From the NCBI GenBank assembly GCA_009692555.1, contig SHYY01000003.1, forward strand, positions 25,937-89,936: a DNA stretch of 64,000 bases, given 5' to 3'. The stretch is from Myxococcales bacterium (GTDB taxonomy: Bacteria; Myxococcota_A; Polyangia; Palsa-1104; SHYY01). Numbering within the stretch: position 1 is the stretch's first letter; each line of letters starts with the position of its first letter. This document shows positions 6,818 through 24,176 of the stretch, one piece after another. The notes below the pieces were generated by a model. The model saw only the letters and a list, made by a program, of their open reading frames with translations. It was not told where the DNA came from and did not search any database. Position numbers and translations under genes: made by a program.

Positions 6818-8464
6818 TCAGCGTCCGAGAAAGATCAGGATCAGCAGGACCACCGCCATCACCACCATGCAGCCGCCGACCACCACGCCGGTCGAGATCC
6901 GGCTCGGCCGGCGACGTCGGCGGCGAGCCGCCGGCGCCCGCACCATCTGGGTCGGTTCGACCGAGGCGGAGGCGCGCTCGGCCTCGCGGCGGCGTTCGCG
7001 ATCGGGCAGGCGGACCAGCGCGGTCTGCGCTTCGCCCGACGGCGGCGCTCCCTTTTGCCCGGCCTTCGGGAGGCGTACCTGCGCGGTCGGATCGCTCCCA
7101 TCGACCTCCACCTTCCGCGGCGCTCGACGGCGCTTGTCCACCATCGGAGCCGGGACCTGATCGTTGCGCACGGCCACCTGTCCTGAGGCGGCATGCGGGC
7201 GCCCGTCGTCCGGCGTCCGGCGGGTCGGCTGCACCGCGGGCTTGACGTCCACCGACGCGCGGGCCGCAGCGGCGTCGAGCGCTCCGATCGGTGTCCCATC
7301 CACCGGGGTCTGATCGTGGCGCGCCCCGGCCGGCCCATCGAGCGTGGTCATGTCGACCTCGGTGTCGCCTTCGAACCCCTCGAAGGAAGCGGTATCCTCG
7401 TCGAAGAGATCGTCGTCGTCGTCATCGGGATCGATCTCCACGTCGAGCGACGGCATGGCGCGCTCGAGGTCGAGCTCCTCGTCTCCGGTGCCTTCGGCGA
7501 ACTCGGCGCCTGGCGCGAGGCCGCGCGGCGCACGGAACAGGTCGCGCATGTAGAGCGCGATCTCACGCTTTCCCCACCCCTCCTCCTCCTCTTGAAGGTA
7601 CGTCCGCAGGTCCTGCCGCAGCGCCGAGGCGGTCTGGTAGCGCTTCGCAGGATCGCGCGCCAGGAGCCGCCCGAGAATCCGCTCGAGCGAGCGCGGGAAG
7701 TCGGGGCGCACGTCGCGCGGGCGTGGGATATCGCCCTCCAGCACCTTGCGTCGCACCGCGGCCGGCTTGCCCCGAAAGAGGCGCTTGCCGACGGTGAGCT
7801 CGTAGAGAATCACGCCCAGCGAGAACAGGTCGGCGCGCGCGTCGACCTTCTCGCCGCGGATCTGCTCGGGCGCCATGTAGTTGAACTTGCCGGCGACGCC
7901 GTCCTCCTTGCGCAGGGCGATCGCCGCGCGCGCGATGCCGAAGTCGACGATCTTGGCGGTGCCGCGGCGAGAGACCACGATGTTGCCCGGGGAGATGTCG
8001 CAGTGGACGATCGACAGGCCCGCTCCGTCGACGCCGCGGTGGGTGTGGGCGTAGGCGAGGCCGGTGGCAGCCTGGGCAACCACACCGACGGCAATCGGGC
8101 GCGGGATGAATTGCCCGGTCTCGACGCCGCGGCGGGCGATCGCCACCAGATCGTGGCCCGGGATGTACTCCATCGCGATGTAGTAGGTGCCGTCGAGCTG
8201 CCCGACGTCGAGGGTGCGGACGATGTTCGGGTGATCGAGGGTGAGGGCGATGCGCCCCTCGTCGATGAACAGCTTCACGACGTGGGTGTGGTCGAGATAG
8301 CGGCGCTGGATGCGCTTGAGAACGAGGTCGTCTTCGCTGTCACTGCGACGGGCGAGGTAGAGATCGGCCATCCCGCCGGCCGTGAGGTACCGGACGAGCT
8401 GGTACGCGCCGAAGCGTTCCGCGGGTGCTGGTACCGGTGGGGGCGACATCCCGGGGGGGATCAT
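6818..8464 (-). CDS. Ser/Thr protein kinase, membrane-anchored (C-terminal TM), HCD catalytic loop
   Basis: Hanks kinase motifs are present: LVLKRI (beta3 Lys), IVHCDISPGNIVV, IVDFGIA and YMAPEQ. An acidic/Pro-rich linker and a C-terminal TM (VVVGGCMVVMAVVLLILIFLG) follow. The start overlaps the HDAC stop (ATGA). Confidence 0.9.
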   Translation of the reverse strand: MIPPGMSPPPVPAPAERFGAYQLVRYLTAGGMADLYLARRSDSEDDLVLKRIQRRYLDHTHVVKLFIDEGRIALTLDHPNIVRTLDVGQLDGTYYIAMEYIPGHDLVAIARRGVETGQFIPRPIAVGVVAQAATGLAYAHTHRGVDGAGLSIVHCDISPGNIVVSRRGTAKIVDFGIARAAIALRKEDGVAGKFNYMAPEQIRGEKVDARADLFSLGVILYELTVGKRLFRGKPAAVRRKVLEGDIPRPRDVRPDFPRSLERILGRLLARDPAKRYQTASALRQDLRTYLQEEEEGWGKREIALYMRDLFRAPRGLAPGAEFAEGTGDEELDLERAMPSLDVEIDPDDDDDDLFDEDTASFEGFEGDTEVDMTTLDGPAGARHDQTPVDGTPIGALDAAAARASVDVKPAVQPTRRTPDDGRPHAASGQVAVRNDQVPAPMVDKRRRAPRKVEVDGSDPTAQVRLPKAGQKGAPPSGEAQTALVRLPDRERRREAERASASVEPTQMVRAPAARRRRRRPSRISTGVVVGGCMVVMAVVLLILIFLGR

Positions 8465-17438: not shown

Positions 17439-17518
17439 TCGGTCCATCTGTGGTCTTCACCCCCACCCCGCCAGAAATAAACACGAATAATTACAGGTCA
17501 TTGAAGCTCAATCGATCG

Positions 17519-17534
17519 TGGCATGTGCGGTGCT
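17519..17534 (+). promoter_or_regulatory. Sigma54-type promoter: TGGCAT-N5-GTGCT
   Basis: Spacing is canonical. GGAGG is at 17547-17551 and the ATG at 17563. 32/50 ungapped upstream positions are identical to the 16071-16120 region. Confidence 0.45.
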
Positions 17535-17562
17535 CGTAGCCCCGATCGGAGGTTTTCCCCCC

Positions 17563-19149
17563 ATGCGCGCGCTCCGCAAGCTGCCCGTGACCGCCCTGTT
17601 CGTCGCCGCCCTCGCCGCCCCCGCCGCTGCCGCCCCGCAACCGATGACCCGCGACGCGATCATCGCCAACGCCAAATGCTCGGTCGGCTTCTCGTACTGG
17701 TGGGGCCACGGCCGCTACACCTGCGCCAACGCGCCCGCCGGCTCCTGCCTCGGAAGCTGCCCGAACTGCACCCACGGCGGCAGCTACGGCGCCGACTGCT
17801 CGGGCATGGTCGCGAAGGCGTGGCAGGTCCCCGGCCCGATCCCGCTCAGCAACGACGGCCACCCCTACTCGACGTTCCACTTCACCGACCAGTCGACCTG
17901 GTGGAGCTCGATCCCCCGCGCGAGCGCCAAGCCCGGCGACGCCTTCACCTACAACACCAAGGGCGCCGGCCACATCATGATCTACGAGAAGGGCGATCCC
18001 TGGGGCAGCTCGTGGGCCTACGAGTGCAAGGGCTGCTCGTACGGCTGCGTCCACAACCTCCGCACCGTCTACTCGAACTACGTCGCCCGTCGCCGCGACA
18101 GCGTCCTCGACGCCGCGGACAAGGACGGCGACGGGATCATCGACCCGAAGGACAACTGCGATCTGGTGAAGAACGCCAGCCAGACCGACACCGACAAGGA
18201 CGGCAAGGGCGACGCCTGCGACGACGACGACGACGGCGACGGCCTCTCCGACGCCAAGGACAACTGCGATCTGGTGAAGAACCCCACCCAGACCGACACC
18301 GACAAGGACAAGCAGGGCGACGCCTGCGACGACGACGACGACAACGACGGCGTCCCCGACGCCAAGGACAACTGCGATCTCGTCGCCAACAAGACCCAGG
18401 TCGATACCGACAAGGACGCCAAGGGCGACGACTGCGACGACGACGACGACAACGACGGCCTCCCCGACGCCAAGGACAACTGCCGCACGGTGAAGAACCC
18501 GGGCCAGGAGGACGCGAACAACAACAAGAAGGGCGACGCCTGCGAGGACGACGACGACAGCGACGGTGTCCTCGACGCCAAGGACAACTGCCGTCTGATC
18601 GTCAACCCCGATCAGGCCGACACCGATCAGGACAAGAAGGGCGACGCCTGCGACGACGACGACGACGGCGACCTCCTCCCTGACGCAAAAGACAACTGCC
18701 CGCTCGCTCCGAACGCCGATCAGGCCGACACCGACAAGGACGGCAGCGGCGACCTGTGCGACGACGATCGCGACGGCGACGGCGCGCAAAACGCGAGCGA
18801 CAACTGCCCCGAAGCGGCGAACGCCGATCAGGAGGACGCCGACGGCGACGCGATCGGCGACCGCTGCGACGACGACACCGACGGGGACGGCAAGACCAAC
18901 GCCGCCGACAACTGCCCGACCATCGCCAACCCCGATCAGGCGGATCGCGACCACGACGGCGCCGGCGACGCCTGCGAGATGGGCGACGACGGCGAGATCA
19001 CGCCGCTCGGCATCCCCGCAGCTCCGCCGGAGGACAGCGGGGCAGTAAGCGGCGGTTGTACCGTCGGGGGCGCCCCTGCCTCGGCCTCGCTGGCGCTGCT
19101 CGCCGCCGCGGCCCTCGCCCTCGCGCTGCGCCGTCGCCGCCACCCGTAG
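17563..19149 (+). CDS. Secreted NlpC/P60-like domain + ~16 thrombospondin type 3 repeats + MYXO-CTERM-type tail (paralog of 16155..17438)
   Basis: The start is set at MRALRKLPVTALFVAALAAPAAA (signal peptide), not at the listed 17518. It shares the Cys-rich N-terminal domain ([21 protein letters not shown]). The C-terminus is SGGCTVGG...ALALALRRRRHP. Confidence 0.85.
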   Translation: MRALRKLPVTALFVAALAAPAAAAPQPMTRDAIIANAKCSVGFSYWWGHGRYTCANAPAGSCLGSCPNCTHGGSYGADCSGMVAKAWQVPGPIPLSNDGHPYSTFHFTDQSTWWSSIPRASAKPGDAFTYNTKGAGHIMIYEKGDPWGSSWAYECKGCSYGCVHNLRTVYSNYVARRRDSVLDAADKDGDGIIDPKDNCDLVKNASQTDTDKDGKGDACDDDDDGDGLSDAKDNCDLVKNPTQTDTDKDKQGDACDDDDDNDGVPDAKDNCDLVANKTQVDTDKDAKGDDCDDDDDNDGLPDAKDNCRTVKNPGQEDANNNKKGDACEDDDDSDGVLDAKDNCRLIVNPDQADTDQDKKGDACDDDDDGDLLPDAKDNCPLAPNADQADTDKDGSGDLCDDDRDGDGAQNASDNCPEAANADQEDADGDAIGDRCDDDTDGDGKTNAADNCPTIANPDQADRDHDGAGDACEMGDDGEITPLGIPAAPPEDSGAVSGGCTVGGAPASASLALLAAAALALALRRRRHP

Positions 19150-20688: not shown

Positions 20689-22260
20689 ATGAAAACGTCC
20701 ATGCTCCGCTCGATCACGAAGTCAGTTCTGCCCCTGGTTGCGGCCGCCCTGGTCGCGTGCGCTGGCCCGCCCGCCGAGGTCGCCGAGACGCCCGGTTCCG
20801 ATCCGCCCGCCCCGGCCGACATGAGCCCGCCGACCACGAAGGACGCCAAGCCCCCAGAGGTGATGCAGCCGAGTCCGGCGATGCTGGTCGACATCCGCAT
20901 CGATCCGGCGTTCGTCTCCATCCCGGTCGGCATCAAGCAGCAGCTCCACGCCTTCGGCCAGTACAGCGACGGAACGACCCGCGACGTGACGAAGGACGTC
21001 GAGTGGAGCTCGGCCGACCAGAACGTGGTGGCCATCAGCAACGAAGCGGGTAGCAAGGGCCTGGCGGAGGGTCTCGCTCTCGGCGAGGCGTTCATTGACG
21101 CCCGCAAGGGCGCGATCTTCTCCAAGTCGCAGCTCTACATCACCGCGCTCAGCCTGGTGTCGCTCAAGGTGTCCCCGGACGGCGTGCTGATCCCGAAGGG
21201 CCTCAAGCAGCAGTTCACCGCCGAGGGCACCTTCGACGACGGCTCGGTGAAAGACATCACCGCGTCCGTGCTGTGGGCGTCGTCCGATGAGAGCGTCCAG
21301 GTCAGCAACGAGCCCGGCGAGAGCGGCCTCGCGTACGCCAGCGGCCAGGGCGCGGCGGTGATCAGCGCCCAGCTCCTCGGCTTCGACCACGGCGTGCAGA
21401 TGATGGTCGACGCGGCGGAGCTGGTGTCGATCGCCGTGAGCCCCGATGCGGACCACGTCGCCAAGGGCCTCGCCAAGCAGTTTCGCGCCGAGGGCACCTA
21501 CACCGACGGCTCGACCCAGGACCTCACCCTCCAGGTGATCTGGTCGACCTCGGACGAGAGCGCTCTGTCGATCAGCAACGAAGAGACCACCCAGGGCCTC
21601 GCGCAGGGACTCTCCGAGGGCGAGGCGATCGTCACGGCCACCTACCAGCATCTCAACGCGTCGGCGGCGATGGTGGTCAGCCCGCACGAGCTCGCCTCCC
21701 TCGCGATTTGCCCCGAGGAGCAGTACGTCGAGGTGGGCGGCTCGGTCCAGTTCAGCGCGACCGGCATCTACAGCGACGGCGAGACCGAGGACATGACGGC
21801 GGCGGTGGTGTGGTCGTCGGCGGACGAGAACGTCGCTACGGTTGGCAACGAGCGCGACGGCGGTGAGGCGGGCAAGGCGCAGGCCGCCGCCCCCGGCGAC
21901 ATCGATATCGTCGCCACGATGGGTGACCTGAGCGCGAAGGTCAGCCTCCACGTCGCGGTGCCGGAGCTGGTCGACATCACCGTCCTCCCGGGCAACGCGA
22001 GCATCCAGATGAACCACGATGAGCAGTTCCAGGCGGTGGGCACCTACTCGGACGGCTCGACGCTGGACCTGAGCGCCTTTGTCACCTGGTCGTCGAGCAA
22101 CGAGAGCGTCTGCCTGATCAGCAGCAACGAGGGCTCGATGGGCCTGCTGAGCGGTCTCTCGCACGGCGAGTGCATCATCACCGCGACGCTGTCAGGCGTC
22201 ATCGGCACCACGAAGCTCGCGGTCATCGACCCGGAGCACGAGGAGGATCCGGCCCCGTAA
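20689..22260 (+). CDS. Lipoprotein with ~5 tandem Big_2 (bacterial Ig-like group 2) domains
   Basis: Signal peptide with lipobox LVAC. The unit V.SI.VSP....I.KG...QF.A.GTYSDGST.D.T..V.WSSSD..V..I.N......G.A....G...I.A is repeated. Confidence 0.85.
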   Translation: MKTSMLRSITKSVLPLVAAALVACAGPPAEVAETPGSDPPAPADMSPPTTKDAKPPEVMQPSPAMLVDIRIDPAFVSIPVGIKQQLHAFGQYSDGTTRDVTKDVEWSSADQNVVAISNEAGSKGLAEGLALGEAFIDARKGAIFSKSQLYITALSLVSLKVSPDGVLIPKGLKQQFTAEGTFDDGSVKDITASVLWASSDESVQVSNEPGESGLAYASGQGAAVISAQLLGFDHGVQMMVDAAELVSIAVSPDADHVAKGLAKQFRAEGTYTDGSTQDLTLQVIWSTSDESALSISNEETTQGLAQGLSEGEAIVTATYQHLNASAAMVVSPHELASLAICPEEQYVEVGGSVQFSATGIYSDGETEDMTAAVVWSSADENVATVGNERDGGEAGKAQAAAPGDIDIVATMGDLSAKVSLHVAVPELVDITVLPGNASIQMNHDEQFQAVGTYSDGSTLDLSAFVTWSSSNESVCLISSNEGSMGLLSGLSHGECIITATLSGVIGTTKLAVIDPEHEEDPAP

Positions 22261-22299
22261 CCCGGCCGAACACTAGCTTCTCCTTCGGCTTCTGAGAGC

Positions 22300-22332
22300 G
22301 GGTCGCCCATACCGGGCGGCCCGTTTTTTTTT
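22300..22332 (+). terminator. Intrinsic (Rho-independent) terminator
   Basis: GGGUCGCCC-AUACC-GGGCGGCCC forms a 9-bp stem (one G-U pair), followed by G and nine consecutive T (22324-22332). This is exceptional in such GC-rich DNA. Confidence 0.75.
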
Positions 22333-22753
22333 GTGTGCCCAGCATGAGACTCGGCTTGGAGGTGGAAGTCCTTCGGGGAAGCTGGTCGCAGCGACCCCAA
22401 GCAAACCGCAAGGCGTCCGGCCGCGAGGCCGGCGCTGAAAGAAGCGGGGAGCGAAACCGCGCGTCGACGAACAGAAACCGGATACGAGGCGGCGTCGAGC
22501 AGGGCGAGCGGGCAGATGACCGCGAAGCTCTCGCGACCAAGGCTCGACGACGTAGATCCGGCGACGGTGCGGGGAAGGTCGATGCTCTTACCTGGGGAGA
22601 TCTCGCCTTGCGCTTGAAAGAGCGACGCCCGTCGAAGGACGACGCGTCGTCGACGTGGACCTCGAACAGTTTTTCGATCGGGTGAACCACGACGTGCTGA
22701 TGGGGAAGCTGGCGGCGCGGATCATGGACAAGCGGATGCTGGGGCTGATCCGT
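22333..22753 (+). mobile_element. Degraded group II intron remnant (5' GUGUG + fragments of the intron-encoded reverse transcriptase)
   Basis: It begins GTGTG directly after the terminator T-tract. One frame (22518-22634) gives DREALATKARRRRSGDGAGKVDALTWGDLALRLKERRPS, like the RT-0 region sRENLlaAlkRVrrNkGAaGVDGmT...L..yLke.WP. A shifted frame (22640-22753) gives [39 protein letters not shown], the DxxxFFDxVxHdxLm motif. The intervening RT domains and everything 3' are missing. Confidence 0.6.
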
Positions 22754-22845
22754 CACCCCCTATCCCGATTCGCCAGATCCCCTGCCTCCCCCGCCGCTTC
22801 TCCTCCGACTGCTCACCCGTACAGCGAAAAAGTGGGGCAAAAAAA

Positions 22846-22873
22846 TTGACCCGCCCGTTCCCCGACGGAGAAT
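22846..22873 (+). promoter_or_regulatory. Candidate sigma70-type promoter for ftsZ (TTGACC-N16-GAGAAT) with upstream A-tract
   Basis: GGGGCAAAAAAATTGACC precedes a 16-nt spacer and GAGAAT. GGAGGG is at ~22883 and the ATG at 22896. Confidence 0.35.
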
Positions 22874-22895
22874 GGGCGAGCGGAGGGTACCTTAC

Positions 22896-24176
<1,281 letters not shown>

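Follow-up and report, generated by a model that had tools for sequence, protein, structure and literature searches.

Between a gene for a protein with Big_2 domains and the cell division gene ftsZ, the stretch of DNA analysed here (the window, 64 kb) contains a fossil group IIC intron at a canonical IIC insertion site. The whole remnant is 437 nt long (22333..22769, + strand); it retains both intron termini and lacks two internal blocks, and with them the catalytic part of the ribozyme. It is very likely that a full-length IIC intron homed past the terminator of the Big_2 gene and then decayed by two internal deletions. An earlier note on this DNA had proposed a decayed class C-type insertion past an intrinsic terminator, and lineage, IIC ribozyme features, target site and exon pairing all agree with that proposal.

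Ribozyme, reverse transcriptase fragment and termini

The first part of the remnant corresponds to intron nt 1-295 (22333..22627, +), and it comprises the GTGTG 5' end, a complete domain I and one short GAAA-capped hairpin. When the window was scanned with all Rfam families, RF02001 (group-II-D1D4-3) was the sole family reaching threshold, with a full-model match at 22417-22586 (118 bits, gathering score 32, E 3e-25). Both the GUGYG 5' end and the domain I covariance-model match expected of a group II ribozyme are thus present. In the minimum free energy (MFE) fold, nt 6-10 and nt 267-271 form the helix that closes domain I. With an MFE z-score of only -1.49 for the domain I segment, folding energy was set aside as uninformative stand-alone evidence at a GC content of 66%. 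In a blastn search against 72,556 plasmids, 183 records matched, and in almost all of them 22333-22627 is collinear with the first ~293 intron nt; identity to intron nt 1-293 of two of the copies (L001 and L162) is 80%. An intact copy is found in Burkholderia vietnamiensis pBVIE01 (L002), where the intron starts past a terminator and encodes a 436-aa RT/maturase from nt 471.

The other part expected of a group II ribozyme, a catalytic domain V with a domain VI carrying the branch-point A, is missing from the window copy. No match to RF00029 was obtained for domain V even at E <= 10, and RF01998, which comes just after RF02001 in L001 and L003, is absent from the remnant. As domain V is unmatched and domain VI is reduced to its last 13 nt, the element is a remnant and not an intact member of the family. 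Further intron pieces were not found elsewhere in the window. The view that most of the ribozyme had been deleted holds for domains II, III and V and half of domain VI, which are gone, but not for domain I, the largest, which is whole. Similarly, the element is strongly shortened as had been claimed (about 420 nt left of roughly 2 kb), but the correct figures are 437 nt of about 1,800-1,950, with the end at 22769 and not at 22753.

Following the ribozyme part, 41 codons of the intron-encoded protein (IEP) remain without a stop (22631..22753, +). From our general knowledge of group II RTs, we take them to represent RT motif 3 (RT3, motif A with the catalytic Asp) and the start of the RT3a insertion. 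The fragment matches the group II RT/maturase profile TIGR04416 (E 4.2e-11, profile positions 123-160) and, in the PDB, residues 132-169 of the GsI-IIC RT (E 2e-11), followed by 5HHL, 5HHJ and 7UIM, so that the PDB matches are to IIC RTs only; against Pfam RVT_1 it reaches only E 0.0023. It is 66% identical to residues 155-192 of an intact IEP, and at the nucleotide level 22634-22754 matches nt 932-1055 of L162, nt 933-1046 of L002 and nt 946-1052 of L126 with 72-79% identity. A protein search with the 42-aa fragment yielded nothing beyond nine short fragments of 44-73 aa, a full-length IEP not being among them.

Two RT fragments had originally been described. The label RT-3/4-like was fair for the one above. 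The peptide GDGAGKVDALTWGDLALRLKERRP (about 22560-22631), on the other hand, had been called RT-0-like, and this identity was rejected, as the peptide is translated domain I ribozyme DNA. Its DNA lies within domain I, partly inside the RF02001 match, and aligns to nt ~226-293 of the related introns, at least ~170 nt upstream of the IEP start codon; the same ribozyme DNA in L092 yields a similar open frame. In annotation, neither of the ORFs 22335-22685 and 22655-22849 should count as a gene, and intron remnant is the proper label for what lies between the terminator of the Big_2 gene and the ftsZ promoter.

The 3' terminus of the intron, CCCCTATCCCGAT, is found at 22757..22769 (+), four nt past the end of the RT fragment. 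It is the 3' strand of domain VI with its bulged A, and ends in AT. The reference for this end is the intact L002 intron, whose end ...GCCCCTATCCCGAT coincides with the last base of a match to RF00029 (domain V-VI). The 13-mer is identical to the end of L002 and occurs with at most two mismatches at the ends of 23 full-length family copies, which span 1,801-2,039 nt, and of nine ORF-less copies; in these relatives it forms the domain VI 3' strand and adjoins a domain V with the CGC triad. In the window it is unique, and 0.03 occurrences would be expected by chance even with one mismatch. Two 3' ends that had been picked up by regular expression in L103 and L119 were discarded as they are RYADD codons instead. 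Once the terminal 13-mer of the family had been located at 22757-22769, a reading of the element as truncated at its 3' side was dropped, and the end placed at 22753 in the earlier note had to be moved to 22769. Since the 3' terminus was kept, a full-length intron would have been inserted and would later have lost two internal blocks.

Mapping by blastn and tblastn to L162, L126, L002 and L001 places the junction of the first deletion at 22628..22630 (+). Here ~635 nt (reference intron nt ~296-930) are missing, covering domains II and III, the 5' part of domain IV, the start of the IEP and RT0-RT2a. The junction of the second deletion is at 22754..22756 (+), as indicated by mapping to the relatives and by the lack of an RF00029 match; there ~805 nt (reference nt ~1055-1860) were lost, with RT4-7, thumb/X, the DNA-binding (D) domain, domain V and the 5' strand of domain VI. 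The window originates from a freshwater metagenome, and both junctions are crossed without a single difference by contigs from three runs of two studies, which cover 22101-23300, 22318-23300 and 22190-22820 at the depth of the flanks (3.6-7.4x). Related contigs continue as intact ribozyme exactly past 22627 (...GGAGCGAGAAGTCAGCAGAG), and related metagenome introns carry the missing RT codons just before 22652. Other introns of the same IIC family are present in the same freshwater samples at 30-68x (runs X1-X4, measured on 22437-22712); they are 86-88% identical to the remnant, the contig of which has a depth of ~6x. No metagenome contig shows an empty site.

Class C assignment and target site

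The assignment to class C relies on the RT, the ribozyme and the location. The 436-aa IEP of L002 matches the GsI-IIC RT (6AR1) with 523 bits (E 5e-156), its next best PDB matches are 7UIM, 5HHJ and 5HHL, all of them IIC, and it reaches 151 bits against LtrA (IIA) and 120 bits against the IIB maturase RT 6ME0, which we take to be TeI4h. The window fragment with its exclusively IIC matches agrees with a class C IEP, for which the absence of the En domain was judged in the relatives. Domain V in all full-length and ORF-less relatives reads ACCGCC... and has the CGC triad and a distal stem of 3-4 bp; a shortened domain V with the CGC triad is known from IIC introns (PMC1702495, PMC4424553). In the window itself a putative IIC-type epsilon-prime bulge, GCTGAAAGAAG, is found at 22434..22444 (+), aligned to the Rfam consensus UCUGAAGGAAG. 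An epsilon-prime bulge of 11 nt that contains AGGAA has been described as a IIC-specific feature (PMC1702495), and the AAGAA of the window (22439-22443) is one substitution away from it, while L001 and L002 (GAAGGAAG) as well as L003 (GGAGGAAG) all have AGGAA. Class D (RmInt1-like) had been suspected from the many Sinorhizobium matches and was rejected by the match to the GsI-IIC RT and the terminator context of the relatives.

IIC introns are inserted in sense orientation just downstream of a terminator or another stem-loop, 3-11 nt past the stem (PMC1702495). The stem-loop replaces IBS2, IBS1 is only 3-4 bp, and EBS2 is lacking (PMC1702495, PMC4424553). In location, orientation and length of IBS1 the window agrees with this. 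A terminator scan and the sequence itself identify an intrinsic terminator at 22294..22332 (+), with a 9-bp stem (22300-22308/22314-22322; eight G-C pairs and one G.T), the 5-nt loop ATACC (22309-22313), a G and then T9 at 22324-22332. The stem ends at 22322/22323, and the intron begins in sense orientation with GTGTG at 22333, directly adjoining the T tract. The description of hairpin, T9 and GTGTG in the earlier note was exact. The terminator lies 39 nt past the stop codon of the Big_2 gene, and its proposed assignment to that gene is reasonable.

EBS1 (AGA, 22514..22516, +) is situated in a loop at 22512-22519 (GC-NNNNN-A) and was recognised from the family-wide covariation of the loop with the exon: 3.41 consecutive pairs were observed on average compared to 1.25 after permutation, and the observed value was not attained in any of 5,000 permutations. 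Examples of EBS1/IBS1 in the family are ACGC/GCGT in L001 and ACATC/GATGT in L003. In the window, AGA pairs with TTT at 22330-22332 (IBS1) as A-U, G.U and A-U, which gives three consecutive pairs (four of five overall) and thus the short pairing typical of IIC introns; with 3 bp and one wobble, it is at the low end of the family. Like most relatives, the window copy has a T at the start of the 3' exon.

The rules of targeting were compiled from 120 metagenome stretches sharing the 5'-end pattern together with the plasmid copies and the window, in total 82 distinct insertion sites. Directly upstream of the intron, 52 of the 82 sites have a hairpin with a minimum of 7 bp and four G-C pairs, mostly along with a T-rich tract of 5-8 nt, whereas such a hairpin is present in 27 of 272 control segments. 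The distance from stem to intron peaks at 5-8 nt, and the last nine bases of the 5' exon are T-rich. Eleven sites (L089, L094, L124, L155, L132, L115, L128, L196, L139, L171 and L200) share a conserved hairpin, CCGCG-N-GCGG, followed by TT(C/T)(A/C)GT(T/C) and often preceded by CAGCGTCCG; this recurring target motif may represent a repeat element or else a homing site specific to a lineage. At three further sites (L107, L184 and L148), the last bases of the 5' exon are those of another copy's domain VI 3' terminus (...CCTATGCCGATT, ...CCTACCCGA), and judged by these ends the three are tandem insertions for which the domain VI hairpin of another intron presumably served as the target. The intron of L087 follows a truncated 5' intron piece.

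The locus, the proposed history and its rivals

The gene upstream of the remnant (20689..22260, +) encodes a secreted protein or lipoprotein with five Big_2 domains (Pfam Big_2, five stretches, E 8.8e-39) and a lipobox-like LVAC at the N-terminus. It ends with a TAA stop codon, and its GC3 of 0.93 resembles that of ftsA and ftsZ. Among 5.8 billion proteins no ortholog was found, and the best match beyond the window's own protein has 43% identity, at the level of a paralog. Downstream, ftsZ (22896..24176, +) shows up to 73-77% identity to FtsZ of Myxococcota metagenome-assembled genomes (MAGs). The spacer between ftsA and ftsZ is ~90-110 nt in most Myxococcota relatives and 0.8-1.8 kb with unrelated genes in some, and neither the Big_2 gene nor the intron was found near ftsZ in Myxococcota relatives (GTDB genome scan by FtsZ, the closest at 73-77% identity). 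When the segment 20466-22895 was compared with the related loci (L004-L043), ftsA was not nearby in L004 and L005, where an unrelated secreted protein or lipoprotein gene precedes ftsZ. Just upstream of ftsA in the window, the ORF 17518-19149 (+) encodes a secreted protein in which Asp-rich DxDxDGxxDxxD repeats are numerous. These resemble thrombospondin type 3 calcium-binding repeats, and the protein has a possible C-terminal sorting tail; the ORF is another non-division gene adjoining ftsA in the neighbourhood of the division genes.

The DNA from the intron end to ftsZ (22770..22895, +) is the 3' exon, native DNA between the terminator and ftsZ, with the ribosome binding site GGAGGG. A promoter scan identified in it a promoter-like block (22827..22873, +) consisting of an A-tract, TTGACC (22846-22851), 16 nt and GAGAAT (22868-22873). 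The same block is conserved upstream of ftsZ in the intron-less L004 (~6940-6990) and L005 (3573-3627), and its conservation extends, with GAGAAT or GACAAT as the last element, to Myxococcota MAGs whose FtsZ identity is only 66-73%. As the block is native 3' exon DNA, at least 58 nt past the end of the intron, the scar adds only distal DNA upstream of ftsZ, and this DNA is probably untranscribed. The suggestion that the scar supplies part of the ftsZ upstream region therefore stands for the distal DNA but not for the promoter-like block, which is native and common to intron-less relatives.

The most probable history is the following. A full-length class C intron of about 1.85-1.95 kb would have retrohomed in sense orientation just downstream of the Big_2 terminator by the rules of IIC introns: the stem-loop of the terminator would have been recognised, EBS1 would have paired over 3 bp with IBS1 at the end of the T tract, and T would have stood at +1. 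The allele before insertion would have read ...CCCGTTTTTTTTT|TCGCCAGATCC... with no insert. Two later internal deletions of ~635 nt and ~805 nt would then have left the 437 nt with the intact domain I, the 41-codon RT3/3a piece and the last 13 nt. As domain V and a complete IEP are lacking, the remnant should be capable of neither splicing nor mobility, and it would be an inert spacer between the terminator and the native ftsZ promoter. Since the closest FtsZ is at 73-77% identity and there is neither a Big_2 ortholog nor an empty-site allele, the pre-insertion state is reconstructed and not observed. A parent copy was likewise not found among the relatives, the closest of which are at ~80% (L001 and L162) and, in the same metagenomes, at ~86-88%.

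The same structure could have come about if the deletions arose already at insertion, through template switching of the RT on the reverse-spliced intron RNA, in which case the copy would have been dead on arrival. Precise termini on both sides and an RT piece of 41 codons without a stop would fit such an origin, and in the family, internal deletion with both ends kept is frequent (17 of the 40 copies with a verified 3' end). Still, neither junction shows clear microhomology, judged by eye, and deletion after insertion accounts for truncated bacterial introns more simply and is better documented (PMC4424553); we consider template switching rather unlikely, although it is the rival to be taken most seriously. 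Another scenario is that a broken fragment, or a block of terminator plus intron, arrived with the Big_2 gene by recombination or horizontal transfer, without homing at this locus. The Big_2 gene is indeed lineage-specific and resides in the ftsA-ftsZ spacer, which varies from ~90 nt to 1.8 kb in the relatives. However, the two termini adjoin a canonical site of hairpin and T tract to which the EBS1 of this very copy fits, the 3' exon has the T preferred by the family as its first base, and the GC3 of the Big_2 gene is host-like; even with joint arrival the intron would still have homed past the same terminator, only earlier. Joint arrival is thus improbable.

The intactness and good folding of domain I, the existence of ORF-less relatives of ~610-650 nt with complete ribozymes, and the position of the remnant ~75 nt upstream of the -35 box of ftsZ could be taken to indicate an ORF-less intron that still functions, or a structured RNA co-opted to influence the expression of ftsZ. 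Catalysis would be impossible, however, given that domains II, III and V are missing along with the 5' strand of domain VI; a strong terminator precedes the element, the promoter block that follows it is conserved where relatives lack the intron, and there are no orthologs showing conservation of the remnant. This reading is hardly credible, and the related idea that the intact domain I was retained to affect ftsZ expression, be it as a structured spacer, an insulator or a read-through RNA, is only slightly less improbable. An artefact of metagenome assembly, a chimeric collapse of a repeated intron, might be suspected from the much greater depth of the related introns in the same samples compared to the contig of the remnant. 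Against this, independent contigs (X1, X2 and X3; two studies) span the junctions and flanks with zero mismatches at flank depth, and the relatives present at high depth are 12-14% different and have no long exact words in common with the remnant across the junctions, which makes such an artefact extremely improbable.

Related introns and meaning

In addition to the full-length introns, the family contains ORF-less IIC copies of 609-650 nt, present at nine of the 82 sites (L100, L106, L108, L125, L127, L129, L146, L158 and L173). In all nine, domains I-III, a domain V with the CGC triad and domain VI are intact; six of them are collinear over the full length with 71-97% identity, each with a different terminator. 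The sequences suggest that these copies are a non-autonomous lineage mobilised in trans. ORF-less bacterial introns have been described as rare (PMC4424553). An internally deleted IIC copy of 477 nt with both ends kept is found in the E. coli plasmid NZ_LR890336.1 (L003:3001-3477). It has partly lost the 5' strand of domain V and follows a hairpin downstream of a phage holin gene, and the plasmid also has phage tail-fibre genes. In total 45 E. coli plasmid records matched the remnant query by blastn, and the detail given here is from this one plasmid.

The remnant resembles the known IIC introns B.h.I1 (Bacillus halodurans), GsI-IIC (Geobacillus stearothermophilus) and O.i.I1 (Oceanobacillus iheyensis) in its GUGYG start and compact domain I. 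It shares with bacterial IIC introns the short EBS1-IBS1 pairing and the sense insertion a few nt past a terminator stem-loop and T tract, its putative epsilon-prime bulge is one substitution away from their (A)GGAA, and its IEP fragment is closest to the GsI-IIC RT. Its relatives share the En-less IEP of ~436 aa and the domain V with the CGC triad. In contrast to intact IIC introns, it lacks domains II, III, V and half of VI and retains only 41 codons of the IEP, i.e., it is a fossil, and its host, unlike those of the known introns, is an uncultured freshwater member of the Myxococcota. The ORF-less mini-introns (L100, L106, L146, L158, L173, L129 and others) are similar to the remnant in family, type of target site, retention of both ends and internal loss of the ORF. 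They have, however, kept domains I-III, V and VI and could probably splice or move with a helper IEP, whereas in the remnant the catalytic domains are gone and part of the ORF survives.

Bacterial group II copies are mostly truncated or inactivated (PMC4424553), and in this respect the finding is an ordinary one. The remnant is like those copies, for which being non-functional and outside genes is the commonest state (Zimmerly & Semper 2015, PMC4424553), but differs from simple end truncation in that both termini were kept and two internal blocks lost. The 82 target sites, the EBS1 covariation and the ORF-less copies of ~640 nt may be of more interest than the scar itself. The scar shows that an uncultured freshwater member of the Myxococcota once had an active IIC intron. 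Its terminator hairpin, T tract, 3-bp IBS1 and T at +1 make it a clean textbook example of how IIC introns are targeted, and internal deletion is very likely the way in which it then decayed.
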